Positions 1,370 to 48,610 of a stretch of 64,000 nucleotides of DNA are shown here, piece by piece. The notes beneath the pieces were generated by a model that was not told the origin of the DNA, did not search any database, and saw nothing but the letters and a program-made list of their open reading frames with translations. Each line of letters begins with the position of its first letter. Positions within the stretch are counted from its first letter, which is position 1. A program made the position numbers and the translations under genes. Source of the stretch: Candidatus Taylorbacteria bacterium RIFCSPHIGHO2_12_FULL_45_16 (GTDB taxonomy: Bacteria > Patescibacteriota > Minisyncoccia > Phycocordibacterales > PALSA-1337); the NCBI GenBank assembly GCA_001821055.1, contig MHRT01000007.1, positions 7,931 through 71,930 of the forward strand, read 5' to 3'.

Positions 1370-1371
1370 AA

Positions 1372-1399: not shown

Positions 1400-1404
1400 T
1401 TCTC

Positions 1405-5590: not shown

Positions 5591-5595
5591 CGAAG

Positions 5596-5628
<33 letters not shown>

Positions 5629-6478: not shown

Positions 6479-6899
6479 ACTTCTGGTGGCGCTATAGTAA
6501 GGCCGAACTATTCATTTGAATGAATAACACGGCCAAGGATAGCGCCCCACTAAAACTGTCCATCATATACTGTCTCCCGGTGGTTGTGCCACTGAGGTTA
6601 GAATATACATTTTTAAAGATTGGTGTTTCATCGACGGATCCACGCCCCCCGAGAGGAACGCTTCAAATCCTACCAACTACGCTACGCATCAAAAACGTAT
6701 AGTCAATATAAAATTACAGTAAAGCTTCTAGGGTCTTTTCGTCTAACTGCAGGTAACCGGCATCTTCACCGGTACTGTATTTTCACCGAGCAAGTCTCCG
6801 AGACAGTTCTCCAGTCATTACACTATTCAACGCGTCAGAACTTACCTGACACAAACTGTTACTTTTGTCCGAGATGGACATGACTTGCAAAAATTTATA

Positions 6900-7928: not shown

Positions 7929-7940
7929 TAGGAATTGCGC

Positions 7941-8477
7941 TAATTTTTGTTAACTGCATGTCGCCATGCAGATCGAACTCTATCTTCTTAACTCACTTTG
8001 AATTAAGTCTGACGTTTGGTTTCTGAGGATTCTACAATACCTTAAGGAAGGGGTGAGGACGAATCTCACCCAAGTTCATTTCGGACTTTCGGCCTCTTTT
8101 GGTCTATTAACAGACAGCTCGAAATCCAATTTGCACTTATCCGAACATGTGCTACGAACATTCCAGTTGGGTGAGTTCAGACGATCAATTGGAATTAATT
8201 TTTCGCACATTGCACATCTAGTTGATCTTTTACTTTTCATAATACCTCCTTAAGGTATTGTAGTCTTTCCTGCTGATTGCCCGCACTTTCCGATTGTCAC
8301 CACTTTAACTAGCTAAAGTGGTACGAAAAGATACTCGGACTTCCCAGCATATAGTCAGATATTTTTGGACATCTATTCGTTCAATAGATAGGCAGCGTCT
8401 TAATTTACTGCGTTGTTTGTGTTTCTAAATTGTTTAACATTTCGCCATAACAGTCCTAGTCCTTCTTGGTTCACCTT
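7941..8477 (-). mobile_element. Group I intron in 23S at E. coli position 1931 (after GGTCCTAAGGT), ORF-less
   Basis: Upstream exon ends CGGTCCTAAGGT at plus ~8478. Shares P/Q and R/S-like elements (ACTCGGACTTCCCAGCATATAG / GCATGTCGCCATGCAGATCGAACT) with the other two introns. Confidence 0.6.
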
Positions 8478-8491
8478 GCGGAAAACCAAGA

Positions 8492-8526
<35 letters not shown>

Positions 8527-8699
8527 CAGGGCTTATAACGCTCACCACTATATCTTGCGACATAGCAACGGCATTATTTGACCTTCTGGCATTGGTCAAG
8601 TGTCACCCCCTATACATCCTCTTACGAGTTCGCAGGGAGCTGTGTTTTTGTTAAACAGTTGCCAGAGATACTTTAGCTGCGGCCAAAGTAGGGGTTAGA

Positions 8700-8985
8700 A
8701 GTTAGAAATATATTATGATACAATTATGTACATGGTAACAGACGGACCTTGGACAGTAATACTTATAGTCGACCTGTTTATCTTTTCATTTCTCTTTGGT
8801 GGTGGGCTGTATGTACGATCAACTCATGGAATACTAGCTATTAAAAGAGTGTTCGCCAAAATGCCACCAAAACAAAAACGTAATACAATGGACTATAAAC
8901 TTAGTCTCTTCCTGAAAATAGTTTTTGTTACCACTCTCCTCATAGCTATTGTAAGCATCATCGCACTAATAATTTTTTTCTGATT
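8700..8985 (-). other. AT-rich stem-enclosed intervening sequence in 23S domain IV (between GCCGTAACTTCGG... and ...GATACC/CAGCTAAAG)
   Basis: Flanked by the complementary arms CCAAAGTAGGGATTAGAGTTTAGAAAT and ATTTCTAACTTCTAACCCCTACTTTGG. The insert has no rRNA homology. Confidence 0.55.
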
Positions 8986-9743
8986 TCTAAACTCTAATCC
9001 CTACTTTGGCAAGCCTTATTCCGAAGTTACGGCTGCTTTTTTGCCGAGTTCCTTGGAGACCTCTCACTCGTTCGCCTAGGTCTACTCGACCTGATCACCT
9101 GTGTCGGTTTGCGGTACGGTTTTTACGTGGTTATGCTTAGAAGTTTTTCTTGGAAGCGTGCTTTGATGCATTAGCCTTTTTACAGGCGACTGTGCTTCGC
9201 TTGCGTTCGACATTGAAGTCAGGATCCGGATTTGCCAAGACCCACACTTACGCTACACACATTAAATCCAATTATATGCGCATCATACTACACTCCGTCA
9301 CTCCATCGCACCACGCAAAAGTTATGGAATATTAACCATATGTCCATCGGGTGCGGCGTTCGCCATCCCCTTAGGACCGACTAACCCTTGGCTGATATAC
9401 ATTGCCAAGGAAACCTTGATCTTTCGGCGTGCGGGTATCTCACCCGCATTGCGGTTACTTGTGCCAACATTCTTACTTCGCAACGCTCCAGCATGGGTCA
9501 CCCCTTTGCCTTCAACGCAGATGCGAATACTCTCCTACCGCTTGTGTACTTAATTAAGGGGGCAACTCTCACGCAACATGGTCGATTAAGTTCGACCTGA
9601 CATATTTCCAGGTTCACGCCTACGTTCCCCAAACCTTCTGGTCTAAGATACGGGCAAGAGAAGCAGAAAATGCTGGGAGAGTTACCCAAAGACAAGAAAT
9701 CATTCTTGGTTGCGATTTTTACCTGAAAAATCGACGAAAAAAG

Positions 9744-9816
9744 TGGCTCCCAGGAATGGGCTTGAACCATTAACCTTCGCATCGCTGCGTTGCTCTACCA
9801 ATTGAGCTACCTGGGT
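9744..9816 (-). ncRNA. tRNA-like element 2 inside the helix-45 IVS (73 nt, encoded CCA); anticodon arm replaced by a GNRA-capped hairpin
   Basis: Sequence ACCCAGG-TA-GCTC-AATTGGTA-GAGC-A-[CGCA-GCGA-TGCG]-AAGG-TTAATGG-TTCAAGC-CCATT-CCTGGGA-G-CCA. Confidence 0.4.
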
Positions 9817-9875
9817 AACCGATTCAAATTTACTTACTTCCGTAAAGTGACGACCTTTTCGTCACTCTGAAGAAG

Positions 9876-9951
9876 TGGTGCGAGTGGGGCGGTCTCGAAC
9901 CCCCGACCTCCGCCGTGTTGGGGCGGCGCTCTGCCTCTGAGCTACACTCGC
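9876..9951 (-). ncRNA. tRNA-like element 1 inside the helix-45 IVS (76 nt, encoded CCA); non-canonical anticodon loop
   Basis: Sequence GCGAGTG-TA-GCTC-AGAGGCA-GAGC-G-CCGCC-CCAACAC-GGCGG-AGGTC-GGGGG-TTCGAGA-CCGCC(C)-CACTCGC-A-CCA. The acceptor stem is a perfect 7 bp. Position 33 is C and the anticodon reads AAC. There is one mismatch or an extra nucleotide in the T-arm. Confidence 0.45.
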
Positions 9952-10879
9952 ACAATGATTTAAGTGTGTGGAAGGATGACGCATGCACGTTCCCTTCATC
10001 CCTATGAACAGGACAAGTTACGAACTTGCGGGATTTCCCATTTCCGGATCCGCCATTCCTGTTCTAATTAATACGGATCCATTCAAGAGGTGACTATGAA
10101 AATTGACCAATTTACGCGCATCAAATTCACCATCACCTTATGCGAGAGATCTGCACAATCCCCAGGAACACACAATCGTTGCCTCTATGAGCAGAATTTG
10201 AATCCGAATTCTCCGGAAACAAATTCCGCCCATAGAAGCCAAAGAACAAATTTTCCTTAATAAAGTACACAAGCCCTCAGTTTCGGTACAACATTTTAGC
10301 CCCGATTATCTGCGGCGCGAAATTTCTCGATGAGTGAGCTGTTACGCTATCTTCGAATGATGGCTGCTTCTAAGCCTACATCCTCATTGTTATAGAAATT
10401 TCACTACCTTAAGCGCACTTAATGTTGATTTAGGGACCTTAAATTGAGATCCGGGCTGTTTCCCTTTTGACCAATGGAGCTTAGCCCCCACAGTCTAACT
10501 GCCGGATAATTACCTTACGTATTCGGAGTTTGATAGGTTCAGGGATCTTTCGACCTGTCAGAACCTTCCAGTGCTCTACCCCGTAAGGGTACATCCGACG
10601 CGAACCCAAAAGTTCTTTCGGAGAGAACCAGCTATTACCAGATTCGATTAGCTTATCACTCCTTACCACACGTCATCCGATAGTTTTGCACGGCTAACCG
10701 GTTCGGGCCTCCATCCTCCTTTCGGAGAACTTCACCCTGCGCGTGGCAAGCTCATCTGGCTTCGGGTCTTTAGCAAACTACGAGCGCCCTGTTCAGACTC
10801 GGTTTCCCTGTGACTCCGTCCTCGCGGACTTAGTCGAGCAGCTTGCTAAAACTCGTTGGCTCATTCTTCAATAGGCACG

Positions 10880-10980
10880 CCGTCACGGACAACACAAATT
10901 AAACAATTTAACTATTCAACAATTGAACTATTAATAATTGTTAAATGGTTCCTTTGTAGAATTATTTAATTTGTGTTGTC
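10880..10980 (-). other. Helix-25-region intervening sequence of 23S, an AT-rich hairpin carrying the four-helix-bundle cassette end motifs (ORF-less)
   Basis: Inverted arms GACAACACAAATTAAA / TTTAATTTGTGTTGTC enclose ttcaacaattgaactatt + aattgttaaatggttcctttgtagaatt. Confidence 0.55.
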
Positions 10981-11038
10981 CGCTCCGACTCCTTGTAGGC
11001 ATATGGTTTCAGATCTATTTCACCGCCCTTCCGGGCTG

Positions 11039-11078
<40 letters not shown>

Positions 11079-11494
11079 TAGAAAAATATTTAGACTTGCC
11101 AGTTAGTTCTGGCGGATTCCACCGAGCTTTTCGTGTCCCGGTGTACTTGAGAATCAAGACAAAGAAGATCTTTTATTTTCGCTTATGGGACTATCACCCG
11201 CTAGGGTCGAGCTTTCCAGCTCGTCAAGCTAATAAAAAATTTGATAACTTCTCTGCCAATTCTAAATAAATAGAATAGCACGTCTCAACCTCGCAACCCC
11301 CTACTCCGCTCGTTACTACGTAACGAGCTTCGAAGGGCAAGTTCCTTTATTTAGGGCCTGCCCTTCGTAGCTCATGCGTAGCAATGAGCGAAGTAGGGTT
11401 TAGTCTTCTCCGCGTTCGCTCGCCGCTACTGACGGAATGCATGTTTGTTTATTTTCCACCTGGTACTGAAATGTTTTACTTCCCAGGGTACGCT

Positions 11495-11686
11495 CCTGCT
11501 TAGATTTTTGGGTTCTTGACAAAAAGAATATAATTTGATACTATATCTAGTGAAGATTTACAAGGTTTCTTACCCTAAGACTTTCTGAAGCCTTCCGCTT
11601 CGACAAGTTCTTGGAAGTCACCCTTGAAGTTTTCACTAAGGCCCCCGTGGGCCTTTTTCTTTTTTGAACACAAAAATCTAAGCAGG
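11495..11686 (-). other. Helix-9 intervening sequence of 23S (~150 nt from the 5' end), closed by a 16-bp stem
   Basis: Arms CCTGCTTAGATTTTTG / CAAAAATCTAAGCAGG. The insert has no rRNA homology. Confidence 0.55.
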
Positions 11687-12240
11687 TCTCCAGGTTTTAC
11701 CTGAAGGGGTTTCCCCATTCGGACATCTTCGGATCAAAGGTTGCTCGGCACCTCCCCGAAGCGTATCGCCGCCACGCCACGTCCTTCATCGCTTTTTCTA
11801 GCCAAGGCATCCACCATACGCCCTTTAAATTTCCTATTAGGAAATTTAAAAACCGTTTTCACCCTTCGAAGCTCCTTTTTAGGAGCGAAGTAGGGTTTGT
11901 CACGCCATAGCCATTTTTCAATGGCGACGGCGGACTATTACTTATTTACCTACATGGTATCTGTCATATGCTCGACCCGAGCACATAACAAACCGGTTCG
12001 AAATGATTCTACTCGAATCACCTGAACCCCTTATAATTTGAGATATGTAATTTTCAAGATTCATTCGTCCTGCATTGTCCTCCGAAGCTTTCCTGACCTC
12101 CGAAGCTTTAGCGTAGGAGGTAGCGAAGGAGGAAAAGAAAAAACCGCTTCGGCGGTTACAAGCTAAGCTCTATTACTAGAGTTTGGCTATGGCCGCTTTA
12201 ATATTCGGTTAATCTTTGTATTCATATCTGAGTACAAGTA

Positions 12241-13761: not shown

Positions 13762-13830
13762 GATGGTAAATCGTATTGTAGCAGAAATTGGCGCGAAAGG
13801 AAGCGCCTGACAACACAGGACTTCAGTCGA

Positions 13831-13933
13831 ACCAGCGCACAGCAAAAAACATGTGGGATTCGGATACGCGCGTTCGGCCGAGAGCGGCCTGCGCAATGTA
13901 TCCTCACCCACATGTTTTTTGCTGTGCGCTGGT
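13831..13933 (-). promoter_or_regulatory. Long perfect inverted repeat (27-bp arms, 49-nt loop) 8 nt downstream of the rplL stop
   Basis: Arms accagcgcacagcaaaaaacatgtggg / cccacatgttttttgctgtgcgctggt. The loop itself contains GGCCGCTCTCGGCC. Confidence 0.6.
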
Positions 13934-13940
13934 TCGGTGA

Positions 13941-18006: not shown

Positions 18007-18037
18007 GCCTAATAATGCACACAGCGTATCAGACAGC

Positions 18038-18080
18038 GATAAAGATTCGCTGAAGAAGTGATAAAGTTTTGCTGAAGTTT
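18038..18080 (+). repeat. Copy 1 of the ~43-nt intergenic repeat (GATAAAGAnnnGCTGAAGAAGTGATAAAGTTTnGCTGAAGTTT), 32 nt upstream of the 15112-18006 start
   Basis: Near-identical to copies at 31427-31480 and 59071-59113. Confidence 0.7.
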
Positions 18081-18276
18081 CGCGTCTCGAGAATAAACCT
18101 CGATAAGAATATCCTACAGAGTTGAGCCGTATCGGCCGACCAAAAATAAAACCGCAAAGCTGGCCATGAGAATAAGCATAAAACCTATTAGAAATCGGAA
18201 GAAACTGCGGTCAAAAGGATTAATCATATTGGAAATAGTATAACATGAACTAGCGAGGTCTACCCTCGCTTACAAC

Positions 18277-23524: not shown

Positions 23525-25846
23525 ATGTCAAAGAGAAAAAAAGATCTCGGAAAAAAGTCCACTTTTTTGAGTGATATGAAAGATGAAACAATCCGGACAA
23601 TTCTAGCCCTTCTTTCTTTCCTGATAGTGATACTTTCCCTATTGGCGGCATTTGGCAAGGCCGGCTTTGGTAACTATGTCTACACATTCTTTATGCGATT
23701 TTTCGGAGTCGGCTACTATTTGATACCGATCGGTTTTACCATGCTTGGTATCTCGTTTCTCCAGGGTGCCACAAAACGGGTAGAGGGCACCAAGATCGTC
23801 GGGATGATTTTTTTCTTTGCCTCCAGTCTCAGCTTGATTCATATCACCTATGCGGAAGCCGGCGGAGTTGTCGGTCGTTGGATCGCTTCGCCCCTGGTAC
23901 GACTCCTGGATGCTTGGGCGGCGGTGACACTTCTCACAGTGATCTTCATCGTTTCTATTATAATGACTTTCAACTTACATATCACTCTGAAACAACTTAT
24001 GTTTTGGAAATGGTTCAAGAAAGCCGGCAACGCCGACACGGAAGGCTTTTTGCAGAAAAAATCCGGCAAAATGGACAAGACCGAAGAAGGCCGCGTAGAT
24101 GCCGCGTTAGCCTCTATTGGAGAGAACGGACCGATCAGCAATCTCGAGAGAGAAGCGATGGAACGAGCTGCCGCTGAACAAAAAAGACGAGAGGACGAAA
24201 AGACCGTGAAGATGGCTTCACGAAAATCCGGCGACTTATCATTTTCCTATGAAGACGACGCTGGATTCGTCGCTCCCATATCCACCGCGTACCTAAAAGA
24301 TTTTACTCCGCCACCGCTTTCGCTTCTCGAAAAAGACAAAGGCAAGCCGGAAACCGGCGACATAAAAGCCAACGCCAACATCATCAAACGAACTCTGCAA
24401 AACTTCAATATCACAGTAGAAATGGACGAGATTTCCATCGGCCCATCGGTTACCCGTTACGCCTTGAAGCCGGCGGAAGGCGTAAAATTGTCCAGAATCG
24501 TCACGCTCAATAACGACTTGGCTCTCGCTCTTGCTGCTCACCCTATCCGTATCGAGGCACCAATACCTGGAAAATCATTGGTCGGCATTGAAGTTCCGAA
24601 TACCGCCAAGACTATGGTCGGCCTAGCGACTCTACTAAGCGCGCATGAATATCAAGATTCAGAAAAACCCTTACTCATGTCACTCGGCAAAGACATTGCC
24701 GGCAAAGCCCATTTCACCAATCTCGCCAAAGCTCCACATACCCTCATCGCTGGTGCGACCGGTTCGGGTAAGTCCGTGACTATTCACGCCCTCATCACTT
24801 CCCTTCTATACCGCAATTCTCCGGAAGATTTGAAATTCATCATGATTGATCCAAAGCGTGTTGAATTGACTATGTATAACAAGATTCCTCATTTGCTCAC
24901 ACCAGTCATTACCGACCCGAAGAAAGCCATCTTGGCTTTGAAGTGGGCAACAAAAGAAATGAGCCGCCGTTATGATGTACTCGAAAAGAACGGCAGTCGC
25001 GACATTGATTCATACCACAAAAATATCTTGGCGCCGGCGGTAGCAACCTGGAAACTTCAGGGAGGTCGGACCTCAAGGTCCGACCTCCCTGAAACCATGC
25101 CTTATATTGCCATCATCATCGACGAGTTGGCGGACATTATGTCTACTTATCCACGAGAATTGGAATCCGCTATCGTTCGCCTAGCGCAAATGAGTCGCGC
25201 TATTGGCATCCATTTGATTATCTCCACTCAACGCCCAAGCGTAAATGTCATTACGGGCCTCATCAAAGCCAACATTCCCACCCGTATCGCCCTCCAAGTG
25301 GCCTCACAAATCGATTCACGCACCATCCTTGACCAACAGGGCGCCGAAAAACTCCTCGGTGCGGGCGATATGCTTTATCTTGGCGGTGAGATGTCCAAAC
25401 CGGTTCGTCTGCAATCCGCGTTTATCACCGAATCAGAAGTTAAGAAAGTTGTGAAGTATTTGATTGATCAATACAAAGACGAAATCGGCGGTGAAATAAA
25501 TCTTACGCCGATCGAGACAGGTTCGAGTGCCGCGTTTGACGTCATGATGGACGATAATTCTCTTGAAGAGGAAGATGAATTGTACGAAACGGCTCGTGAA
25601 GAAGTCACTTCAAGCGGCAAAGCTTCAACTTCATATCTGCAAAGAAAGTTGGGTGTTGGTTATTCTCGCGCAGCCAAATTGATGGACATGTTGGAGGAGC
25701 ACGGAATCATCGGACCAGCAAATGGATCTAAGCCAAGAGATGTGATAGGGGTTGGTGCGGGAATGGAACGAGAAGTACCGGATGATACTCCACCATCAGA
25801 AGACAATTTATCCGCTGATTCCACAAAGGAACAATCTAACAATTAA
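23525..25846 (+). CDS. ftsK: DNA translocase FtsK/SpoIIIE
   Basis: N-terminal TM helices, Walker A motif AGATGSGKSV, and a C-terminal gamma-like domain ...TSYLQRKLGVGYSRAAKLMDMLEEHGIIGP. Confidence 0.9.
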   Translation: MSKRKKDLGKKSTFLSDMKDETIRTILALLSFLIVILSLLAAFGKAGFGNYVYTFFMRFFGVGYYLIPIGFTMLGISFLQGATKRVEGTKIVGMIFFFASSLSLIHITYAEAGGVVGRWIASPLVRLLDAWAAVTLLTVIFIVSIIMTFNLHITLKQLMFWKWFKKAGNADTEGFLQKKSGKMDKTEEGRVDAALASIGENGPISNLEREAMERAAAEQKRREDEKTVKMASRKSGDLSFSYEDDAGFVAPISTAYLKDFTPPPLSLLEKDKGKPETGDIKANANIIKRTLQNFNITVEMDEISIGPSVTRYALKPAEGVKLSRIVTLNNDLALALAAHPIRIEAPIPGKSLVGIEVPNTAKTMVGLATLLSAHEYQDSEKPLLMSLGKDIAGKAHFTNLAKAPHTLIAGATGSGKSVTIHALITSLLYRNSPEDLKFIMIDPKRVELTMYNKIPHLLTPVITDPKKAILALKWATKEMSRRYDVLEKNGSRDIDSYHKNILAPAVATWKLQGGRTSRSDLPETMPYIAIIIDELADIMSTYPRELESAIVRLAQMSRAIGIHLIISTQRPSVNVITGLIKANIPTRIALQVASQIDSRTILDQQGAEKLLGAGDMLYLGGEMSKPVRLQSAFITESEVKKVVKYLIDQYKDEIGGEINLTPIETGSSAAFDVMMDDNSLEEEDELYETAREEVTSSGKASTSYLQRKLGVGYSRAAKLMDMLEEHGIIGPANGSKPRDVIGVGAGMEREVPDDTPPSEDNLSADSTKEQSNN

Positions 25847-25887
25847 AAATAGCTAGAGTTGTTCAATGGTTTAATAATCAAATTACA

Positions 25888-27453: not shown

Positions 27454-27519
27454 AAGTAAGTCCGACTATTCGACAAAGAAACTACCGGGCCATTATCAAA
27501 ATAATAACTTGTAAACATC

Positions 27520-28953: not shown

Positions 28954-29526
28954 ATGTCCCTCCTCGAATACAGCGAAATTACCGAAAAGAAATTCATCGT
29001 CATGGACGGGGCGCCATTTGAGGTCATTTCGGCCCACGTCTTCCGAAAACAGCAGCGCAAGCCGGTCAATGCCACCAAGCTGAAAAATCTGATCACCGGC
29101 AAGGTCACCGAGTATTCATTCCATGTGTCCGACAAGGTCGAAGAGGCAGAAATCGAGTCCCGCGAGGTCAAATACCTCTATAACGCCAAGGGCGAATGGT
29201 GGTTCTGCGAAGCCGAAGATCCAGCGAAGCGTTTCAAGTTCACCGCTGAGCAAGCCGGTCCTCAAGCCAAATTCCTCAAGCCTAATACCATCGTCGAACA
29301 ACTTCTATTCAATGAGCTCCCTATGGGCTTCAAAATGCCTATTACCGCCGAATTACGCGTTACCGAGGCGCCTCCTGGCATCAAAGGCGACACCGCCACT
29401 GGTGGCCAGAAAGTCATCACCCTCGAAACTGGCGCCACCATCAACGCTCCCCTGTTCGTCAATGAAGGAGAGATCATTCGAATAAATACCGACACCGGCG
29501 AATACCGCGAGCGCGTCGGAAAATAA
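28954..29526 (+). CDS. efp: Translation elongation factor P
   Basis: Three OB-domain architecture ...KLKNLITGKVTEYSF...GEWWFCEAEDPAKRFKFTAEQ...ELRVTEAPPGIKGDTATGGQKVITLETGATINAPLFVNEGEIIRINTDTGEYRERV. Confidence 0.9.
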   Translation: MSLLEYSEITEKKFIVMDGAPFEVISAHVFRKQQRKPVNATKLKNLITGKVTEYSFHVSDKVEEAEIESREVKYLYNAKGEWWFCEAEDPAKRFKFTAEQAGPQAKFLKPNTIVEQLLFNELPMGFKMPITAELRVTEAPPGIKGDTATGGQKVITLETGATINAPLFVNEGEIIRINTDTGEYRERVGK

Positions 29527-29532
29527 TTCAAC

Positions 29533-29980
29533 AATTCTACAAAGGAACTATTGAACTATTTGCTAACGCCTCTCTTCAAAATAAATGACCTGAAATTTGA
29601 AAGCTGAGTTGACACAGTTTCAATCTCATAACGAACCTGGGTCAACTCAGATACAGGCACATGATTATTATCCTCTATGATATATAGAATAGATCTTACC
29701 TCACCAGCTGAACCCTTGGCCACGTTTAGAAAATATGCGAATTCTTTGTTTGTGTCTCTTTCAAATCCTTCCGAGATATTTAACATAATAGAATAGCTGG
29801 CACGTTTCAATTGATCAGACAAAGAAAAATCCCTTCGCAGTTTTTCGTTTCTGCTCAATAAATCGTATATGTCCTTAACTACCCGTCTAGCATCTTGCCA
29901 AACGGGTAGTTCCTCGAATCTCTTATAAACCATTTTGTTTAATTGTTAAATGGTTAAATGGTTCCTTAGTAGAATTGCTG
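29533..29980 (-). mobile_element. ~450-nt cassette bounded by ~25-nt inverted repeats (CAATTCTAC[A/T]AAGGAAC...ATTGAAC) that encloses the four-helix-bundle gene
   Basis: Left end caattctacaaaggaactattgaactatt. Right end aattgttaaatggttaaatggttccttagtagaattg. It lies between convergent efp and rpsR. Confidence 0.55.
29556..29933 (-). CDS. Four-helix-bundle protein (23S rRNA intervening-sequence protein / Avd-like family)
   Basis: ELPVWQDARRVVKDIYDLLSR...FSLSDQLKRASYSIMLNISEGFERDTNKEFAYFLNVAKGSAGEVRSILYII matches the family consensus. Confidence 0.8.
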   Translation of the reverse strand: MVYKRFEELPVWQDARRVVKDIYDLLSRNEKLRRDFSLSDQLKRASYSIMLNISEGFERDTNKEFAYFLNVAKGSAGEVRSILYIIEDNNHVPVSELTQVRYEIETVSTQLSNFRSFILKRGVSK

Positions 29981-30184
29981 TTAACTCGCCACATACGGCA
30001 GCAAACCCATAAACCTGGCGCGTTTGACAGCCATCGCCAACTGACGCTGATACTTGGCGGCGATTCCGGTGCGCTTACGGGAAAGAATACGGCCGTGAGG
30101 ATTCAAGAATTTTTTCAAGACTTCCGTGTCCTTGTAATCAATATGCTTGATATTATGTTGACTGAAATAACACTGCTTTTTCAT
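29981..30184 (-). CDS. rpsR: Ribosomal protein S18
   Basis: [63 protein letters not shown]. Confidence 0.9.
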
Positions 30185-30204
30185 GATTGTTTGGTGGTTA
30201 AATT

Positions 30205-30675
30205 TTAGAATGGTATATCGTCTGGGTTAATTTCCTCGGCCGGATATTCGATCTTGTCCGCCGGAGCATCTGGCTGCTCTGCTCCACCCTTTGTGGCGAC
30301 TGGAGCTGATGACACGCCACTGGATCCTGCGCCAGCTCCGGATCCCATTGGTTTATTGCCAAACTGGACATTGTCCGCAATAATCTCTGTGCGATATCTC
30401 TTCTCTCCATCCTTACCCTCCCAGCTCCTTGTCTGGAGGCGACCTTCAATAAGCACTTGTTGGCCTTTCTTCAGATATTGGGCTGATAGCTCCGCGGTTC
30501 GACCAAAAACGGCTACATTGTGAAATTCCACTGAATCTTGACGATTGCCATCTTTGTCCTTGTAGGAGCGATTGGTGGCCACTCCAAAACTGCAGACCTT
30601 AATGCCAGACGGTAAAGCTTTGAGTTCTGGATCACGGGTAAGATTTCCTATAATGAGTGCTTTGTTTAGATACAT
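30205..30675 (-). CDS. ssb: Single-stranded DNA-binding protein
   Basis: OB fold ...[12 protein letters not shown]...[12 protein letters not shown]... and the C-terminal acidic tip DDIPF. Confidence 0.9.
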
Positions 30676-30750
30676 GGTATTTTAATAGTTAGTTATTGGT
30701 AATTGGTTATTAGCGACACAACTAGTCACTAGTTACCGGTAACTGGTTCT

Positions 30751-31317
30751 CTAGATTCCCTCTTTCACCATATTGTCTATACTCTTGTCCATTTCTTCAA
30801 CGGTTGCCGGAACAATGTCTTTTCTATCGTCAGTCAAGGCGCCTGAAATGGTGGCGGGCGCTATCGGAACAAAAGATACTGGGACTAGAGCCGGCGCGCG
30901 TTTGCCGAGATAGGTATCCTCGCGGACCGTGGAAACTAGAAGCGCGCGTAAAACAGACGGAAGAAGCTCAACGGCCTTCTTGACTGTTTCTATTTTATCG
31001 GAGCCAAGCTCGAATTTGATCCAGCCAAAATAGGCATTATCGTGTCTCTCGTATCCGCCGGATAAGTTCTTTTTGCTGATAGTATAGGCGAGTTGTTCGC
31101 GATGTGGAGTTTCATCCGTGATGACCGTCGCTCCGGCGTCAACAATAATTTTTTTCACTGCGTCCGCCTCTTCCGGAACTTTCTCCTCCGGAATAGCAGA
31201 AACAATGAGGTATCCGATCTCATACACCGACACCTCGTTGTGAGTAGTTGTCATAAGTATTTTTGCGGCCTGTGACCCGCCGGATATTCCTTTGGGACCT
31301 TTCGACAGAAAGGACAT
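30751..31317 (-). CDS. rpsF: Ribosomal protein S6 with a C-terminal extension (true start may be Met22)
   Basis: YEIGYLIVSAIPEE...REQLAYTISKK...GGYERHDNAYFGWIKF, in the conserved rpsF-ssb-rpsR order. Confidence 0.75.
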   Translation of the reverse strand: MSFLSKGPKGISGGSQAAKILMTTTHNEVSVYEIGYLIVSAIPEEKVPEEADAVKKIIVDAGATVITDETPHREQLAYTISKKNLSGGYERHDNAYFGWIKFELGSDKIETVKKAVELLPSVLRALLVSTVREDTYLGKRAPALVPVSFVPIAPATISGALTDDRKDIVPATVEEMDKSIDNMVKEGI

Positions 31318-31426
31318 ACCGCTTTAATTGTAATAAATGACAGGCTATCACAAATCCTACCCCAACGCAAGAACATGCAGCCCGCGCGACGCGTAGCGCG
31401 AAGGCCATGAAAGTGTATCAGAAAGA

Positions 31427-31480
31427 GATAAAGAAATGCTGAAGAAGTGATAAAGTTTTGCTGAAGTTTTGCTTTTACCG
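31427..31480 (+). repeat. Copy 2 of the ~43-nt intergenic repeat, upstream of rpsF
   Basis: gataaagaaatgctgaagaagtgataaagttttgctgaagttttgcttttaccg. Confidence 0.7.
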
Positions 31481-43180: not shown

Positions 43181-43208
43181 GCTTTTACCGAGGTGGAACC
43201 TCAGTAAG
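43181..43208 (+). repeat. Partial copy of the intergenic repeat family (gcttttaccgaggtggaacctc); it supplies the last six codons and stop of ileS
   Basis: Matches the 3' part of copies 2 and 3. The ileS C-terminus TEVPPR* is encoded within it. Confidence 0.55.
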
Positions 43209-46200
43209 AGTTACTTTAAACTCAACATCCCCTGTCACCACTGGTTCTCCAACCACACTCCCAAATCTAACTTCAGAAATAGTGCACGCCGCCTTCACTT
43301 GTTTTTCATTATCCTCAACAAATTTCCGTCCAGCGCCATTGGTATCCAAAATAAGCACAGCTTTGTCATTCATACTCAATCCTTTTTCTTTACGCAGATC
43401 CTGAATGGCACGGATAAGTTCGCGGGTCATACCCTCCTCTTTGAGTGTGGGGGTGATGGTCGTATCCAATTCGACATCTTTCTCGATTGTAACTCCAAAG
43501 ACGACCTCCTTCACATTCACTTCATCCTTGATCAGTCCCACAAAATTATCCGCCAATGACTTTGATTTTTGATTTTTAACTTTTAACTTGCTCAAGGGCT
43601 GTCTGATATTGATCTTGGCCGCCATGCGCGCTTCCAGGCCTTTTGAACAAAGAGTGCGGACCGTCTCCATGTTGGCGATTAGATCCGAGTCAATTTTCTC
43701 CGCCGCCGGCCATGTTTCAAGATGCACACTCTCCAATCCTCCACCGACTTCTTGATACAAATAATCAGCGAAGAATGGTGAAAACGGCGCCATGATTTTT
43801 GCCAAAGTAATAAGCACATATCGCGTGGTCAAAATAGCCATTTCTTTGTCAACTAAATCGCTTCCCTTGAACCGATCACGCGAGCGACGGATATACCATT
43901 GCGACAAATCACCGACAAAGTCCCGAATTGAACGAGTTGGTTCTTGAAATGTGTAAGCATCCAATCCTCTAGTCACAATCTCTGTGATCTGATTGAGTCG
44001 GGTTATTATCCAGCAATCAAGGATATTGACACTAACCTTTATCCCTCCGCTTCTCTGCTTCTTTTCTCCCCCATACATCTTGTAAAACGACAATACATTC
44101 CCCGCTAGATTGAAGACTTTCTTGACTATTTCATCTACTGTTTTCTCCTCAAAATTCTTTGAGTCACCGGGCTGATTGACCGAATACATCCAGTAGCGCA
44201 GGGCGTCAGCTCCATATTTATCCATCATCTCCCAAGGAGAGATGACATTACCAACCGACTTGGACATTTTTTTGCCATGGGCATCTAGGATATGGCCCAA
44301 ACAGATGACATTTTTGAATGCTTTACCCTTGCCCATGAGTATGCCGACTGCGTGCAATGTATAAAACCAACCACGCGTCTGATCTATGGCTTCGGAGATG
44401 AAGTCTGCTGGGTAGGCTAGATCTTGTTTTTCGGAAAAAAAACGGCTGAATGTATTTCCTCCTTTTACAAATGGGTAATGGTCCTGCGCGAACGGCATAG
44501 ATCCAGAATCAAACCAGACGTCCATGACTTCTTTGACACGCGACATCGTGCCGCCACAGGCACAAGACAATTTAACTTCGTCGATATGCGGGCGATGTAG
44601 ATCAAGCTCGTATTCGGCGTTGTGCGGAATCACCGAAAAATCAACCAGACGAATCTCTGAATTGTTTATGTATTGGCTTTTTTCCAATTCGATGGAGCAG
44701 ACGCGGTCAAGACCCTTGGCAGAGGAGAGCAACATCATGGCCGGTGTCGCATGAGTAATGATGAGTATCGTCTTGTTAACATATTTTCCGTCAATTTCAT
44801 AGAGAAAATCCCCGGTGCGTTTTTTGACATCGCCGTATCTTTCGGCGCCAGGTGGTACATGTTCGAAGCGAGACTCAAACGGAAATGTTTCAGACAAATC
44901 CTTGACTTTCTTGCCATCATAGTCGCCAAAATCAAGTTCATTCAGTCGTTCGTCGATAATGACCTTATCATCTGAAAAACCGAGCGCCTCTTGAATAATG
45001 GCCGCAGTCCGGCGCGCTCGCAAAAACGAGGAGTGATAGATGAGATCAATGCCTTTGCCTTTGAGAGAGATAGCTGTTTTATTTACATCTTCTTCGCCGA
45101 CAGAAGTGAGATCAAACAGTTCACGGTCTTGGGAATTTAAGATTCCTTCAGTATTATTTTCCGCTTCCCCGTGGCGCATAATATGATAGGTATTTCGCGA
45201 CTTCTGGGCAATCTCCTGCACCGAACCAACAACTTTACTCTTTTGACAAGTACCACAGATCCAAACAGGCAATGGCGTGCCCCAATATCGTTCGCGGGAA
45301 ATAGCCCAGTCTTTGATCTCACGAAGCCATTCGCCAAATCTGCCATCCTTGATATATGCCGGTTCCCAGTGAATACCTTCGTTTTCTTTGATTAGTTCCT
45401 TTCGTAAAGAAGACATTCTGATGTACCAAGAGTCGCGAGCAAAGTAGATTAGAGAAGTTTTACAGCGCCAACAAAATGGATAGCTATGCTGGTGCTTTTC
45501 TTTGTGAAATAGAAGGCTACCGTCCGGGCGATTGGCTAGATCCTTTATTATCTCAACATCGGTGGCCTCATCTCTGACGAATTTTCCCGCCAAAAACCCA
45601 GCCACCTTTTTGAAAGTTCCATCTTCATTGACCAAATGATATCTTGGCAAACCTACTTTGGTCCCAAGTTCAAAATCGTCCTGACCGTACATGACGGCCG
45701 TGTGTACGATACCAGTGCCGTCCGTAGTTGTGACGAAATCAGCGGCATATACTTTGTAAGCATTCGAAAGTTTTTCCTTTTCAGCACCGGAGATAGAATC
45801 TTGTAGAAAGGAGTAAAGAGGTTCATATTCAAGACCGATAAGTTCTTTCCCTTTTATTGTTTCAAGAATTTTGGCGTCTTTGAATCGTTCCCCAAGGACA
45901 CTTGTGCGATCCTTAGCAAGAACATAGTATTCCAAATCCAAGGTTGGACTTTGCACAGCCACTTGTACGTACTCAATGTTCGGATTCACCGCCAGGGCGA
46001 CATTCCCCGGCAATGTCCACGGTGTGGTTGTCCAAGCCAATAAATACACTTCTTTACTGTCAGATGTTTTCGGAAAAATCTTCTCAATGTTTGTGATTCG
46101 AAACTTCACTGTCACAGCCAAATCTTTCACATCCTGGTAACCCTGCGCCAATTCATGCGAAGACAGCCCCGTTCCGCAACGCGGACACCAAGGCACAACC

Positions 46201-46747
46201 TTGTAATCTTTGTACAAGAGTTTCTTCTCGTCAATCGTCTTCACGATATTCCAGAGAGACTCAATATATGAAGACTTATAAGTGATGTACGGATCCTTTA
46301 AATCAACCCAATATCCCATCCGGTTAGTGAAATCAGCCCACTCATGTACATGTTTCCAGACACTTTCCTTGCATTTTTCGTTGAACGCGCCAATGCCGTA
46401 GGCTTCTATCTCTTTCTTGGATTTCAGGCCCAACTCTTTTTCAACCTGCAACTCAACCGGCAGACCATGAGTATCCCAGCCACCTTTGCGCCTCACATGA
46501 AAACCACACATTGTTTTGTAACGCGGAATAGCATCCTTGAAAGCTCGGGCTTCAAGATGGTGAATGCCCGGAAGTCCATTGGCCGTCGGTGGACCTTCAA
46601 AAAATACGAACTCTTTGCCGCCCTCGGTCTTTTTAAGCGACTTCTCAAAAATCCCTCTCTCTTTCCAGAAAGTCAAGATCTTCTCTTCACGCTCGGCGTG
46701 GGGAGATTTGGTTTGGTTATTTTTTTGTTGATTATTTAATTCAGCCA
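43185..46747 (-). CDS. ileS: Isoleucyl-tRNA synthetase with a nested histidine-phosphatase (PGM/SixA-like) domain (start set at MAELNNQQ)
   Basis: HIGH-like GIHHLEA, CP1 WCPRCGTGLS, WAISRERYWGTPLPVW, zinc knuckle WICGTCQ...SCACGG, DVWFDSGSMPF and KMSKS are all present. A ~200-aa insert sits between the two halves of the zinc knuckle. Confidence 0.9.
44700..45190 (-). other. Histidine phosphatase superfamily (branch 1, PGM/SixA/CobC-like) domain nested in ileS
   Basis: YHIMRHGEAENN (RHG catalytic His), SSFLRARRTAAII, RLNELDFGDYDG, PPGAERYGDVKKR, ILIITHATPAMML (second His). Confidence 0.8.
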
Positions 46748-46783
46748 TAATGTCCACACAAATCAATTGGTTCCAACAGAATA

Positions 46784-48610
46784 TCACATCCTCTTCGGCA
46801 CTTTTATCCCCAACAGCCACAAACCATCCGTCATTGTTATAAGGAATGCTTGCGTCAGATTCAGGCGATATGAAGTCAGCGGATCATTTTCGACAATAAT
46901 CTTATTAGTCGCATAGTAGACGTTGAAAGCCCCGGCCAGAGTGATCAAATAATTGGCGACATGTTGTGGTGCGTATTCCATCCTGGCGTGTTCAACAATA
47001 TCCGGAAATCTTGATATTAATTTTTCTAATAATGTAACCGACTCTGGAAGTATCCCAACAAGGTCGGGCCTTGGGATGATCTGCGCCTGACTTTCAGTTT
47101 GCGAATTTTGATTATTTCCTTCTTTGTTTCTTTGCTTGTCTTTCGATACTTTAGCATAGGAGGACTTTTTTCCTTTTTCCAATACTGCTCCCGCCCTCAC
47201 CGCCGCGTATTGCAAATAAGGCCCGGAATCCCCTTCAAATGAGATAGACGCCGCTGAATCAAAAATAACATCACTGCCGATGGTTTGGCGTAGAATCGTG
47301 TATTTTATCGCCCCGACCGCCACAATATCGGAGATTTCCTCTTTTTCAGCCGGACTCAATTCGCGATCGGAGATTTTATCCATCACCAAAGATTTGATCT
47401 CGCCAAGCAATGATTCAGCTGAAATAACATTGCCTTTCCGCGAAGCCATCTTCCCCGAAGCGAAACGAAGCATGCCGTGTGAAATATGTTTTGTTTTGGT
47501 GAATATGTTTTGGTCAATCAGTGAGAATGCTTTCAAAAGGACTTTGAAATAATCATTTTGTTCATTGGCTGTAATGATTATCGATTCAGTCAGATCGGGA
47601 TATTTTTTGAATTTTTCGATATTCAAACCGATCTCTTTGGCCTCATAGGTGGGCAGTCCCTGCGAAGTGATGAAGACGCGGGTATGCAGTCCATAATCCT
47701 CTCCTTTGAAGATTACGGCTCCTTCACTTTCGGTGAATACGCCTTTCTTGAGAAACTCACGGACGACCTTGATTCCATTGTCAGCAACCTCACTTTCAAA
47801 AAAGAATTCATTGAACTTGGTACCGAGGCTGGCGTAAATAATATCAAAATATTCCAGGCTCCATTTTCTACCCTGGACATATATTTCATTAATATCTTTA
47901 TCCGATTTTTCAAAGATTTTCTTGTTTATCACCGCGATTTCTTTTTGAACCGCCTCATCATCGTCAAATTTTGCCCCAGAAACATACATCTCCCCAAGCC
48001 ATTTGACTTTTTCCGTAACAGAACCGAGATTTTCCCCACGCTTCTCATTTTTGCTTCTTTCCTTTTCTTTTTGTATCGCCCAAATCGTCTTGGCCACATG
48101 CAAACCCACATCACCTTGATAACAGGCGCGGATGACCTCCGCACCGGAGCCTTCAGTCAACCGAGAAATCGACTCGCCGATTGCATTTGACATCAGATGC
48201 CCAATATGAAAAGCCTTGAATGGATTTGGATCAGTATACTCAACCATCACTTTTTTGGAGGTCCGACCTCCAGATCTGTGGATCCGACCCACAGATAGAG
48301 CCGTGGCAACAATCTCTTCCACGAAAACTTTATCCTTGATTTTAAAATTGATAAATCCGGGACCATCAACAGAAATCGATTCGACAAAGCTTAATTTCTC
48401 GCCCAAATATTTTTTTAGTTCGGTAATTATTTTCTCCGCCAGAATTTTCGGTGCCATGTCGAGCTGTTTGGCATAAATCATCGCCACATTGCAGGAAAAA
48501 TCACCATGTGCTGGGTTTTCGGGATATTCCAGCTTGAAAGATGGCATGTCGATGCCCAATCCGACCAAAATCTTATCCACAGCTTGTCCCAGTTCGACTT
48601 TCATATTCAT
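46784..48610 (-). CDS. argS: Arginyl-tRNA synthetase (start set at MNMKV)
   Basis: HIGH motif PFKAFHIGHL, an N-terminal Arg_tRNA_synt_N-like domain, and a C-terminal DALR anticodon-binding region. Confidence 0.9.
   Translation of the reverse strand: MNMKVELGQAVDKILVGLGIDMPSFKLEYPENPAHGDFSCNVAMIYAKQLDMAPKILAEKIITELKKYLGEKLSFVESISVDGPGFINFKIKDKVFVEEIVATALSVGRIHRSGGRTSKKVMVEYTDPNPFKAFHIGHLMSNAIGESISRLTEGSGAEVIRACYQGDVGLHVAKTIWAIQKEKERSKNEKRGENLGSVTEKVKWLGEMYVSGAKFDDDEAVQKEIAVINKKIFEKSDKDINEIYVQGRKWSLEYFDIIYASLGTKFNEFFFESEVADNGIKVVREFLKKGVFTESEGAVIFKGEDYGLHTRVFITSQGLPTYEAKEIGLNIEKFKKYPDLTESIIITANEQNDYFKVLLKAFSLIDQNIFTKTKHISHGMLRFASGKMASRKGNVISAESLLGEIKSLVMDKISDRELSPAEKEEISDIVAVGAIKYTILRQTIGSDVIFDSAASISFEGDSGPYLQYAAVRAGAVLEKGKKSSYAKVSKDKQRNKEGNNQNSQTESQAQIIPRPDLVGILPESVTLLEKLISRFPDIVEHARMEYAPQHVANYLITLAGAFNVYYATNKIIVENDPLTSYRLNLTQAFLITMTDGLWLLGIKVPKRM

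Follow-up and report, generated by a model that had tools for sequence, protein, structure and literature searches.

Intervening sequences (IVSs) of bacterial rRNA have been known since 1990, and a conserved open reading frame (ORF) in them since 1993. RNase III-type processing has been demonstrated for the IVSs of Coxiella and Leptospira. Where IVSs come from, and what the ORF does, is still described as unclear (PMC4990558). In the Coxiella IVS, the ORF occupies the loop of a 28-bp terminal stem and is preceded by tandem heptamers, and RNase III cleaves this IVS in vitro (PMC4990558). In the rRNA of CPR bacteria, both 23S_rRNA_IVP ORFs and short insertions at the helix-25 and helix-45 sites have been reported (PMC11270868). 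We analyzed a 64-kb stretch of a Candidatus Taylorbacteria (CPR) genome, referred to here as the window, in which a gene of the IVS protein family is located outside rRNA.

The four-helix-bundle gene and its inverted arms

An ORF of 125 amino acids on the minus strand (29556–29933) matched the profiles of the "23S rRNA IVS protein" (S23p) family, with E = 1.4e-29 and 102.9 bits (cutoff, 33.8) for PF05635 (23S_rRNA_IVP), positions 1–105 of whose 106 were covered, and with 95.8 bits (cutoff, 24) for TIGR02436 ("four helix bundle protein"). Given that both scores exceed the curated cutoffs, the four-helix-bundle (4HB) assignment made in a sequence-only reading of this DNA is upheld. The motif GxxRxxxSxxxNxxE is conserved in the family (PMC3936711) and is present in the 4HB protein as R44-S48-N52-E55 within LKRASYSIMLNISEG. 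These four residues were invariant or nearly so in an alignment of homologues, and the first G of the motif corresponds to Q41 in this clade.

A monomer model of the 4HB protein obtained with AlphaFold2 (pLDDT of 95.6) contained helices at residues 10–34, 36–57, 62–88, and 94–120. The best Foldseek matches of this model were Xcc0516 (2GSC; TM of 0.83–0.92) and BT_0352 (2RLD; TM of 0.76–0.88), with the TM for Avd (4DWL, 8UBE) being about 0.74. Sequence identity was 28% to Xcc0516 versus 10% to Avd, and the predicted fold is nearer to that of Xcc0516 and BT_0352 than to that of Avd. The fold shared with Avd, together with the inclusion of Avd-like proteins in PF05635 (PMC10053308), would fit an origin as the avd accessory gene in a diversity-generating retroelement (DGR), or as a remnant thereof. 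We consider this origin exceedingly unlikely, however, in view of the low identity to Avd and of a conserved context that is a ribosomal-protein operon. Reverse transcriptase was found in none of the 10 ORFs scanned in the window (263–1211 amino acids, all unannotated mid-sized ones included), and no direct repeat pair resembling TR/VR was present in the 64 kb, so that the sequence-only reading was right to regard a DGR role as unsupported.

The inverted repeat around the 4HB ORF has arms of 33 nt (29529–29561 and 29948–29980) that are 85% complementary and 386 nt apart; repeats of ~25 nt had been proposed at these ends. As had also been recognized, the cassette lies between the convergent genes efp (28954–29526, plus strand) and rpsR (29981–30184, minus strand). 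The latter is the last gene of the host operon (29981–31317, minus strand), which also comprises rpsF (30751–31317) and ssb (30205–30675) and which immediately precedes the 4HB gene in the same direction. The spacer between rpsR and the 4HB gene (29934–29980, minus strand) contains the A-rich 5' arm (29948–29980) and reads CAGCAATTCTACTAAGGAACCATTTAACCATTTAACAATTAAACAAA-ATG in the sense of the gene. The 5' arm is made up of 8-nt units (period-8 signal of 0.79), and no promoter-like or terminator-like site was detected between rpsR and the 4HB ORF. The 3' arm, T-rich in the sense of the gene and located at 29527–29561 (minus strand), overlaps the stop codon of the 4HB gene (29556–29558) and occupies the entire 29-nt spacer up to the stop codon of efp, which abuts it. 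In the MFE fold of the 481-nt cassette transcript, the arm stem closes the ORF (z = −5.1), with a core of 19 bp and imperfect pairing outside the core. The region 29527–29980 has the anatomy of an ORF-bearing IVS, with a PF05635 ORF in host sense in the loop of terminal inverted repeats; its host transcript is an mRNA operon, outside rRNA.

Copies of the arm motif in 23S rRNA and in spacers

With the 17-mer GTTCCTTTGTAGAATTG as query and up to 3 mismatches allowed, we found 6 copies of the arm motif in the 64-kb window, compared with 0.29 expected; none of 100 shuffles gave as many. In every copy in the window, the motif runs in the sense of local transcription.

Rfam LSU alignment, folding, and motif matches revealed an ORF-less, IVS-type hairpin in place of the helix-25 loop of the 23S gene, which is on the minus strand (hairpin at 10886–10982). 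Relative to the Rfam LSU model, the hairpin is inserted at positions ~583/584; it has a basal stem of 24 bp and folds with −46.7 kcal/mol (z = −9.1). The extended stem-loop by which an IVS takes the place of the loop of 23S helix 9, 25, or 45 is represented by this hairpin and not by the ORF cassette, which lies outside rRNA. Its 5' half is the motif of the 5' arm of the cassette, and its 3' half resembles an arm variant of a relative (L007). The hairpin matched the cassette 5' arm over 24 nt (96% identity, E = 5e-6) and a solo copy at 1369–1399 over 31 nt (94%, E = 9e-8). The sequence-only reading had noticed both the ORF-less recurrence of the cassette ends in helix 25 and a solo copy near 1372–1399, and these observations are confirmed by the matches. 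The solo copy (1369–1408, minus strand) is located between the stop codon of ftsW and the ATG of a gene for a DUF6122 protein (1052–1369) and has the same sense as the local genes; its segment 1371–1408 matched 29515–29552 at the cassette end over 38 nt (89%). One relative (L109) has neither the DUF6122 gene nor the motif at the position downstream of ftsW.

A weaker, degenerate mini-hairpin copy, absent from the earlier reading, is present at the very end of ftsK (25816–25870, plus strand), where it encodes the final codons (TKEQSNN-stop); its fold was no better than that of shuffled sequences. This copy is possibly a 43-nt insertion, a reading that shifts with alignment register, the alignment to relatives being ambiguous, and we did not adopt it. 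The other 23S insertions in the window, at the helix-63 and helix-45 sites, have nothing in common with the 4HB flanks. A 36-nt stem flanks the 23S gene (4918–4953 and 11832–11867) and, to judge from its sequence, is a processing stem of the RNase III type existing in this organism. A tblastn search for the RNase III gene (rnc) in the 64-kb window yielded no match.

The fillings of helix 25 differ among relatives (L109/L110 and L114) between identical flanks, GAGCGG...CCGTGAC. The filling in L114, GATTCAAGATTCATGATTCATGAATCAAGATTC, found matches solely in the flanks of the 4HB genes of L089, L066, and L070 (34 nt, 91%, E = 2e-6); this insertion is composed of arm units of another cassette type. 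Covariation of arm type, helix-25 filling, and ftsW spacer was examined in one relative (L109/L110/L115), which has no 4HB gene at the rpsR-efp site; its ORF-less hairpin there resembles neither its own helix-25 filling nor its ftsW spacer. A scan of genome contigs with the 4HB protein yielded 14 loci. None of the 80 closest homologues of the 4HB protein is located inside a 23S gene, and a blastn search with the window 23S found none among 104 loci. This counts against derivation of the helix-25 hairpin from an IVS that carried an ORF, of which no direct case was seen.

The rpsR-efp site in relatives and the family-wide hairpin

The gene order rpsF-ssb-rpsR followed by 4HB, convergent with efp, is present in at least 10 related lineages (L003, L007, L008, L010, L027, L044, L046, L061, L067, and L086). 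Within cassette type 1, identity of the 4HB protein is 75–83%, comparable to that of EF-P and S18, and type 1 orthologues show saturated dS with dN of 0.13–0.21, values indicating that the gene is under purifying selection. Synteny in at least 10 lineages and this selection together argue that the cassette is not a recent insertion. Although synonymous divergence is saturated, the 3' arm has remained almost unchanged in L003 and L008.

The site is polymorphic, with three cassette types whose arms are unrelated between types yet self-complementary within each. The unrelated arms of type 2 cassettes still pair, perfectly over 33 nt in L044, and show compensatory double changes in 9 of 40 pairs. 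Type 1 arms have retained their primary sequence, with only 2 compensatory pairs, which points to sequence-specific recognition in addition to pairing. At the same site, L115 has a hairpin of 138 nt that contains no ORF and whose 33-bp stem is perfect, and L117, the closest relative, has canonical terminators and no cassette. The nearest cassette-bearing locus by neighboring genes, L061, has a different cassette type, which is incongruent with those genes. A recent swap of the cassette in L061, considered because its S18 is 98.5% identical, was rejected, given that the DNA is only 67–83% identical and that no visible junctions can be claimed.

The terminators of L117 bear on the possibility that the stem is mainly a translational or stability switch of the 4HB mRNA, either as a hok-type fold-back or as a 3'-end protection that replaces a terminator, with the likeness to rRNA being secondary. 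No intrinsic terminator is present between rpsR, the ORF, and efp, as would suit such a switch; the sole Shine-Dalgarno-like words (AAGGAAC; AAGAAGGAAAG in type 2) lie in the 5' arm and are paired with the 3' arm; and a conserved hairpin with a GNRA loop before the ATG of type 2 cassettes competes for the end of the 5' arm. Many arm types elsewhere (GATTCAAGATT and similar) are, however, without Shine-Dalgarno-like words, and a switch leaves the ORF-less hairpins in rRNA and spacers unexplained. We regard it as rather unlikely to be the main function.

For the family at large, we scored the "bracket" of a gene as the ungapped inverted repeat between the 100 nt upstream and the 100 nt downstream, with a threshold of ≥14. 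This score replaced raw RNAduplex energy, which was subject to composition effects and did not separate 4HB flanks from those of control ORFs. Among 79 homologues, which came from CPR, Bacteroidota, Planctomycetota, Verrucomicrobia, Ignavibacteria, and other phyla, 62% reached the threshold. The corresponding figures were 0.8% for 256 control ORFs from these loci (p = 7e-26) and 3.4% for flank pairs that were not cognate. Arms of bracketed loci had a median length of 28 nt, and in 53% of these loci the 3' arm started at most 10 nt from the stop codon. Periodic arms had period 8 in 24 of 37 cases (p = 1.7e-15 versus control upstream regions). In 53 of 58 cases, the homologue follows a gene of the same orientation, the median spacer being 64 nt. 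Two features escaped the sequence-only reading: judged from these statistics, a hairpin bracket is a general gene architecture of the PF05635 family, and much of what had been taken for an end sequence is an intergenic dialect with a period of 8 nt.

Such a dialect could by itself account for the locus, if the motif were A-rich, 8-nt-periodic intergenic sequence, the inverted repeat arose from two convergent units each ending with it, and the rRNA match were convergence or chance. Operon spacers of relatives are indeed full of words like AATTNAAC, the window copies all follow the sense of the local genes, and the solo copy supplies the ribosome-binding region of the DUF6122 gene. A bracket of convergent units is nevertheless difficult to reconcile with its similar frequency whether the downstream gene is co-directional (56%) or convergent (65%), a frequency thus independent of gene direction, or with the far better pairing of cognate than of non-cognate flanks. 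The excess of the 17-mer over expectation and the absence of the motif from syntenic spacers of the closest relatives also argue against chance, and we judge this account very unlikely.

Mismatches in the arms were G-U in 89 cases and A-C in 83; the asymmetry expected for selection on sense RNA is absent, so that an RNA-level stem is not distinguishable in this way from a DNA-level inverted repeat. The cassette could then be a DNA-level mobile element resembling a REPtron or a MITE, whose arms are recognized in DNA as terminal inverted repeats (double-stranded, or single-stranded and hairpinned) and which is mobilized or maintained by the 4HB protein or an unlinked enzyme; the hairpins of helix 25, the solo site, and L115 would be non-autonomous copies. 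As for a transposable element or MITE, terminal inverted repeats and several copies are present in the 64-kb window, and the gene sits between inverted copies of a genome-dispersed sequence, like RAYT between REP copies. Extra motif copies of the own type occur near the cassette in L003, L007, L010, L046, and L048, and the motif is missing from ~100 kb of syntenic DNA, including spacers, of the closest relatives without this cassette type. Presence or absence and type replacement at one site, the missing G-U/A-C asymmetry, arm sequence kept beyond the needs of pairing, and the possible 43-nt insertion at the ftsK end can be added.

We nonetheless consider a DNA element unlikely. The 4HB protein showed no match to a nuclease or recombinase family in the profile searches or with PADLOC, which returned no match. 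A target-site duplication was sought, and no direct repeat was found at the arm ends of the cassette; nor was a transposase or integrase found among the ORFs scanned in the 64-kb window. The cassette has been stable at one site across saturated synonymous divergence, the ftsK-end insertion depends on the alignment, and the copies in the window all keep the sense of transcription, a constraint that a DNA transposon need not obey. Comparison of related genomes gave no clean junction between a filled and an empty site: site states differ, and the ftsK-end alignment is ambiguous. The mobile element family of the sequence-only reading can accordingly be retained on evolutionary time scales, to which the site states, the helix-25 fillings, and the absence of the motif from relatives attest, but not in the sense of a recent insertion with a target-site duplication and a transposase.

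A proposed gene-in-a-hairpin module and its relation to known systems

The explanation we favor, with confidence slightly better than even, is an IVS-type module, an ORF in an RNase III-type stem, that rides in host transcripts and has ORF-less derivatives in rRNA and spacers. In this view, the 4HB gene, which lies from its start codon through its stop codon within a long stem whose two inverted arms consist of short, ~8-nt tandem units, would represent free-standing kin of the ORF-bearing 23S IVSs, oriented in sense in the tail of the rpsF-ssb-rpsR transcript. The stem of ~20–30 bp in the transcript may serve as a double-stranded processing site of the RNase III type, cleavage of which would cut the ORF-bearing RNA from the host RNA. 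Excision of this kind would render the module harmless inside essential transcripts, be it in rRNA helices 25 and 45, at operon ends, or in spacers. Cassettes may have given rise, by deletion or copying, to the ORF-less hairpins of helix 25, the solo sites, and L115, with rare spread or exchange of copies by recombination or by some trans-acting activity.

Avd is part of the DGR ribonucleoprotein, and by analogy the 4HB protein may plausibly bind RNA of its own arm repeats. A stronger version, to which we assign only a small probability, makes the protein the trans-acting partner of its own arms, with a putative pentameric ring on four to five ~8-nt units of RNA or single-stranded DNA; gene and arms would be autonomous, and ORF-less hairpins would colonize rRNA helices 25 and 45 and operon spacers. 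If this were true, the factor long sought behind the making, maintenance, or processing of bacterial IVSs would be the "23S rRNA IVS proteins", and arm type and IVS filling would covary genome by genome.

At this locus the IVS module is found outside rRNA, as a conserved gene under selection that closes a ribosomal-protein operon, and the insertion in the rRNA of this genome consists of the arm sequence of the 4HB cassette. Together with the family-wide bracket statistics, it would recast the IVS as one habitat of a general gene-in-a-hairpin cassette in essential transcripts. Genes of the PF05635 type are interspersed in cas operons (PMC3936711), and the gene-in-a-hairpin view would explain such small 4HB genes inside unrelated operons. 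It predicts that RNase III cuts the stems, that the protein binds 8-nt arrays, and that arm type covaries with IVS filling.

The helix-45 IVSs of Coxiella burnetii and Leptospira resemble the cassette in protein family, in an ORF in the loop of a terminal-repeat stem of ~28–30 bp, in short tandem repeats before the start codon, in the sense orientation of the ORF in an abundant host transcript, and in sporadic occurrence among relatives (PMC4990558). The ORF-bearing copy in the window differs in being located at the 3' end of a ribosomal-protein operon and not in rRNA, and its gene is maintained by purifying selection instead of decaying. The copy in the 23S rRNA of the window is in helix 25, not 45, and its ORF was lost or never present; RNase III cleavage of the stems is in this case suggested by their sequence. 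With the ORF-less IVSs at helices 25 and 45 of Salmonella, Yersinia, Campylobacter, and Proteus, and with the short insertions found at these sites in the 23S rRNA of CPR bacteria (PMC11270868), the rRNA copy shares an extended hairpin in place of the helix-25 loop, a filling that varies between close relatives, and perfectly conserved rRNA flanks. Whereas no genomic source sequence is reported for those IVSs in the literature consulted, the fillings in the window and in L114 are arm repeats of 4HB cassettes.

REP sequences with RAYT genes (REPtrons) are likewise a gene framed by a short palindromic repeat in inverted copies, with further copies scattered between genes of the same genome and repeat types that differ among lineages. 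The protein enclosed here is, however, a four-helix bundle and not a Y1 (HUH) transposase, the window shows only a handful of dispersed copies, and copies also occur inside rRNA. Avd of Bordetella phage BPP-1 (PDB 4DWL, 8UBE) has the same fold and, being part of an RNA-protein complex, provides a precedent for nucleic acid binding, whereas the 4HB protein is only 10% identical to it and the window contains no reverse transcriptase, TR, or VR. The closest matches in both sequence and fold are the free-standing 4HB proteins Xcc0516, a homopentamer (PDB 2GSC), and BT_0352 (PDB 2RLD), with which the protein described here shares the motif RxxxSxxxNxxE.

The 4HB gene, its arms and their neighborhood

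The sequence-only reading assigned a 125-amino-acid ORF to the four-helix-bundle (4HB) family of "23S rRNA IVS proteins." A profile search of this ORF (29556–29933, minus strand) yielded matches to PF05635 (E = 1.4e-29) and TIGR02436, both well over the cutoffs. The inverted repeats described around the ORF were found as two arms of 33 nt each (29529–29561 and 29948–29980) that are 85% complementary, and the placement of this cassette between convergent efp and rpsR was likewise borne out. In the predicted fold of a 481-nt transcript (z = -5.1), the entire ORF lies in the loop formed by pairing of the arms. The housekeeping genes of the window include an rpsF-ssb-rpsR operon, which is followed by the 4HB ORF, with efp convergent. 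No promoter-like or terminator-like site was detected in the spacers that separate the ORF from rpsR and from efp, and the 4HB gene is likely cotranscribed with the operon. A second 4HB gene is absent from the window. A 61-nt repeat (79–89% identical) is present at 18023–18083, 31412–31472 and 59056–59116, upstream (in the minus-strand sense) of an LCAT-like gene, rpsF and a comEC-like gene. This repeat is a candidate for a promoter or leader common to the three genes, and the rpsF-ssb-rpsR-4HB transcript may begin at it. The window also encodes an isoleucyl-tRNA-synthetase-like protein of 1211 amino acids (43185–46820, minus strand) with a histidine-phosphatase domain (His_Phos_1, residues 547–705) inserted in its catalytic domain.

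An identical 125-amino-acid protein, annotated as hypothetical, is encoded in another Candidatus Taylorbacteria genome (RIFCSPHIGHO2_01_FULL, CPR/Parcubacteria; GCA_001822495.1, contig MHRD01000010.1). AlphaFold2 modeled the protein confidently as a four-helix bundle (pLDDT 95.6), and the nearest solved structures were Xcc0516 (2GSC; 28% identity, TM 0.83–0.92), which is a homopentamer (PMC4990558), and BT_0352 (2RLD). Avd of diversity-generating retroelements (DGRs), including DGR ribonucleoprotein entries, ranked after these structures with 10% identity. None of the ten window ORFs scanned is a reverse transcriptase and the window contains no TR/VR-like repeats, in agreement with the earlier view that a DGR role is not supported. 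PADLOC returned no match.

The rpsR-efp site among relatives

The closest homologues (75–83% identity) all lie in the order rpsF-ssb-rpsR-4HB with convergent efp, and a metagenome scan revealed six further loci with this arrangement. Among loci designated type 1 (the window and comparison loci L003, L007, L008 and L010), 4HB identities (75–83%) are on a par with those of EF-P (79–87%) and S18 (77–89%). Synonymous sites of the type-1 4HB gene are saturated, with dN being only 0.13–0.21. Despite this saturation the arms are almost unchanged, with AATAGTTCCTTTGTAGAATTGTTGAATTATT, for example, common to the window and L003, so that constraint acts on their sequence and not on pairing alone. The sequence-only reading had proposed an element that moves between sites. 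The state of the site does vary among relatives, but synteny and saturated synonymous sites indicate that the 4HB gene of the window is an old resident under selection rather than a fresh insertion.

Exactly the same site is occupied by a type-2 4HB gene in L044, L046, L061, L067 and L086 (truncated in L086) and by a type-3 gene in L027. The type-2 and type-3 proteins of these relatives are only 54–66% identical, and their arms are unrelated in sequence, yet again complementary (perfect over 33 nt in L044; ATACAAAGAGGTAAGATCTAAGAAGGAAAGAT and ATCTTTCCATCTTAGATCTTACCTCTTTGTAT in L046). Alignment of type-2 arms revealed compensatory double changes in 9 of 40 pairs, with most pairs being invariant in the type-1 alignment. 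The five type-2 cassettes also share a hairpin with a GNRA-type loop directly before the 4HB start codon (CGG-GAAG-CCG, CGG-GAGA-CCG or CAG-GGATA-CTG). Such a conserved hairpin is an RNA-type feature, and the correspondence of its 5' strand to the end of the long 5' arm suggests alternative pairing.

Of the relatives with a cassette, L061 is nearest to the window in each of the four neighbor genes that were fully covered and compared (TatD 61%, S6 65%, SSB 80%, S18 98.5%), yet it carries a type-2 4HB (60%). The host most distant from the window, L003 (49, 49, 61 and 79% for the same genes), carries a type-1 4HB (80%). Cassette type thus does not track the host. Recombination junctions are not visible in L061, the DNA of which is too divergent from that of the window. 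The 4HB gene is missing at the site in two relatives. The contig of L110 and L115 (EF-P 86%) has instead a 138-nt ORF-less hairpin in the rpsR-efp spacer (L115, 15083–15220), the 33-bp stem of which is perfect (-74 kcal/mol). In L105/L117, the closest relative found (EF-P 92%, S18 96%, MscS-like 91%), the site lacks a cassette and holds an NlpC/P60 gene along with ordinary intrinsic terminators. The relatives compared therefore exhibit an ORF within a hairpin of three types, a hairpin alone, or no cassette.

The hairpin bracket across the gene family

Of 12 homologues in other phyla that were inspected initially, nearly all are surrounded by long inverted repeats composed of short tandem units. 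We then scored 79 nonredundant homologues (36–100% identity) from CPR, Bacteroidota, Planctomycetota, Verrucomicrobia, Elusimicrobia, Ignavibacteria and others by the best inverted repeat without gaps that the 100 nt ahead of the start codon form with the 100 nt behind the stop codon. A score of at least 14 was obtained for 62% of the homologues, as against 0.8% among 256 control ORFs taken from these loci (Mann-Whitney p = 7e-26). When each 5' flank was matched with 3' flanks from different loci, only 3.4% of the pairs attained this score; composition alone is therefore no explanation, and the arms covary locus by locus. That the repeat is a mere product of two converging transcripts was ruled out by its frequency with a codirectional downstream gene (56%) as well as a convergent one (65%).

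The ungapped arms have a median length of 28 nt. In half of the cases the 3' arm begins no more than 10 nt from the stop codon, and in half the 5' arm ends no more than 15 nt from the start. On the sense strand, the 5' arm is rich in A (48%). Short-period tandem structure is far more common in the upstream flanks than in controls (p = 1.7e-15), the period in the 37 periodic flanks being 8 in 24, 7 in 8 and 9 in 5. Codirectional placement behind another gene was found for 53 of 58 homologues, with a median spacer of 64 nt. In these sequence comparisons, the hairpin bracket is the general architecture of the 4HB gene family.

Arm sequences in 23S rRNA and relation to known IVSs

The 17-mer core of the arm motif occurs six times in the window (0.29 expected), and alignment of all copies gave the consensus AAnAATTCAACAATTCTACAAAGGAACCATTTAACAATTA, with 8-nt units ending in AAC or TAC. 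A hairpin at 10886–10982 (-46.7 kcal/mol, z = -9.1, 24-bp basal stem) was placed by the 23S model in the loop of helix 25, as previously proposed. This insertion shares 24 nt (96%) with the 5' arm and 31 nt (94%) with the solo copy located after ftsW, which upholds the sequence sharing noted earlier. The latter copy is the leader of a DUF6122 membrane-protein gene (1052–1369, minus strand) between ftsW and a glycosyltransferase gene; this gene is missing at that position in L109. A degenerate extra copy lies at the end of ftsK (25816–25870), and the recA stop codon is directly followed, in sense orientation, by a weak motif-like 17-mer with three mismatches (27466–27482, plus strand), which could be a decayed copy or a coincidence. 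The spacer between rplL and the next gene holds 30-nt inverted repeats (13828–13857 and 13907–13936) that match perfectly around a 49-nt loop. Extra copies of their own type occur near the cassettes of L003, L007, L010, L046 and L048. With up to three mismatches of 17, the motif was not found in syntenic DNA of L105 plus L117, L115, L107, L111 or L114, which have no type-1 cassette; L109, also without one, has a single chance-like match.

The helix-25 filling of the window is lineage specific, the fillings being different in two relatives whose 23S flanks are 88–99% identical, with the same borders (GAGCGG...CCGTGAC). The type-1 5' arm makes up the 5' half of the window filling, the 3' half of which matches the arm variant of L007 (39 nt, 90%). 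The filling of L114, one of these relatives, has the core GATTCAAGATTCATGATTCATGAATCAAGATTC. In a search of ~0.5 Mb of collected loci, its matches with E ≤ 1e-3 were all in a tandem array upstream of the L089 4HB gene (34 nt, 91%, E = 2e-6), and weaker ones were mostly in the 4HB flanks of L066 and L070, of another arm type. Two independent helix-25 insertions are therefore built of 4HB-arm units. The helix-63-site and helix-45-site insertions of the window share nothing with such units, and none of the 80 closest 4HB homologues lies inside a 23S gene.

The 23S gene (minus strand; 5' part 8386–11837, 3' part 4954–6776), which is accompanied by a 5S gene in the window, contains several insertions. 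That at the helix-45 site (9542–10264, minus strand) is ORF-less and ~720 nt long, the corresponding lengths being 15 nt in L109 and ~117 nt in L114. Within it, on the rRNA strand, lies a GC-rich element resembling a tRNA (9876–9951, minus strand; 50.8 bits with Rfam tRNA, called "Val aac" by ARAGORN), the anticodon loop of which is noncanonical; this element may be an RNase P/Z-type processing signal within the rRNA. A 303-nt ORF-less insertion in a 23S hairpin (8682–9010, minus strand; Rfam model position ~1764) is bounded by 28-nt inverted repeats containing GTTAGAA tandem units; comparison with 4HB flanks revealed no similarity. In the stretch 4954–8400, the gene is broken near model position 2045 by large insertions, one of which encodes a LAGLIDADG endonuclease (6963–7832, minus strand). 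Repeated 30–34-nt segments (at 5985, 6939 and 7954; and at 6395, 7861 and 8329) suggest several related introns. The whole split gene is flanked by a 36-nt, 86% complementary stem (4918–4953 and 11832–11867), a classical RNase III-type processing stem.

Directly observed are the anatomy of the cassette, its generality, arm covariation, selection on the gene, site polymorphism and the sequence shared with rRNA insertions. With regard to mechanism, the arm stem may well be a double-stranded RNA processing site at which the ORF-bearing RNA is freed from the host transcript, given that in experimentally studied IVSs RNase III cuts midway along the terminal stem (PMC4990558) and that this 23S gene is flanked by the 36-nt stem. 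Such release would allow the module to sit in rRNA helices and operons without harm. Because G-U pairs are not enriched among the sense-strand mismatches of the arms (89 vs 83), the mismatch spectrum does not distinguish an RNA-level from a DNA-level role. Conservation of type-1 arms beyond pairing suggests a sequence-specific partner, for which the 4HB protein itself is the obvious candidate.

The protein family, helix-25 and helix-45 insertions (also in CPR) and the stem-plus-ORF anatomy of rRNA-borne IVSs were known before. Scattering of 4HB-family genes among unrelated operons has been described (PMC3936711), as have PF05635 ORFs inside CPR 16S and 23S insertions and short nonintron insertions at classical IVS sites of CPR rRNA (PMC11270868). 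Our literature search found no report of a hairpin bracket with ~8-nt periodic arms as a general architecture of free-standing family members, of a direct sequence link between arms and ORF-less rRNA insertions in two genomes, or of one chromosomal site with ORF-bearing, ORF-less and empty states. The old question of the nature of IVSs and the purpose of their ORF is now open to specific experiments. In the Coxiella IVS, tandem heptamers precede the start of an ORF that lies in the loop of a 28-bp terminal stem (PMC4990558), and the 4HB cassettes resemble this IVS in having a terminal stem, an ORF in the loop and short tandem repeats ahead of the start.
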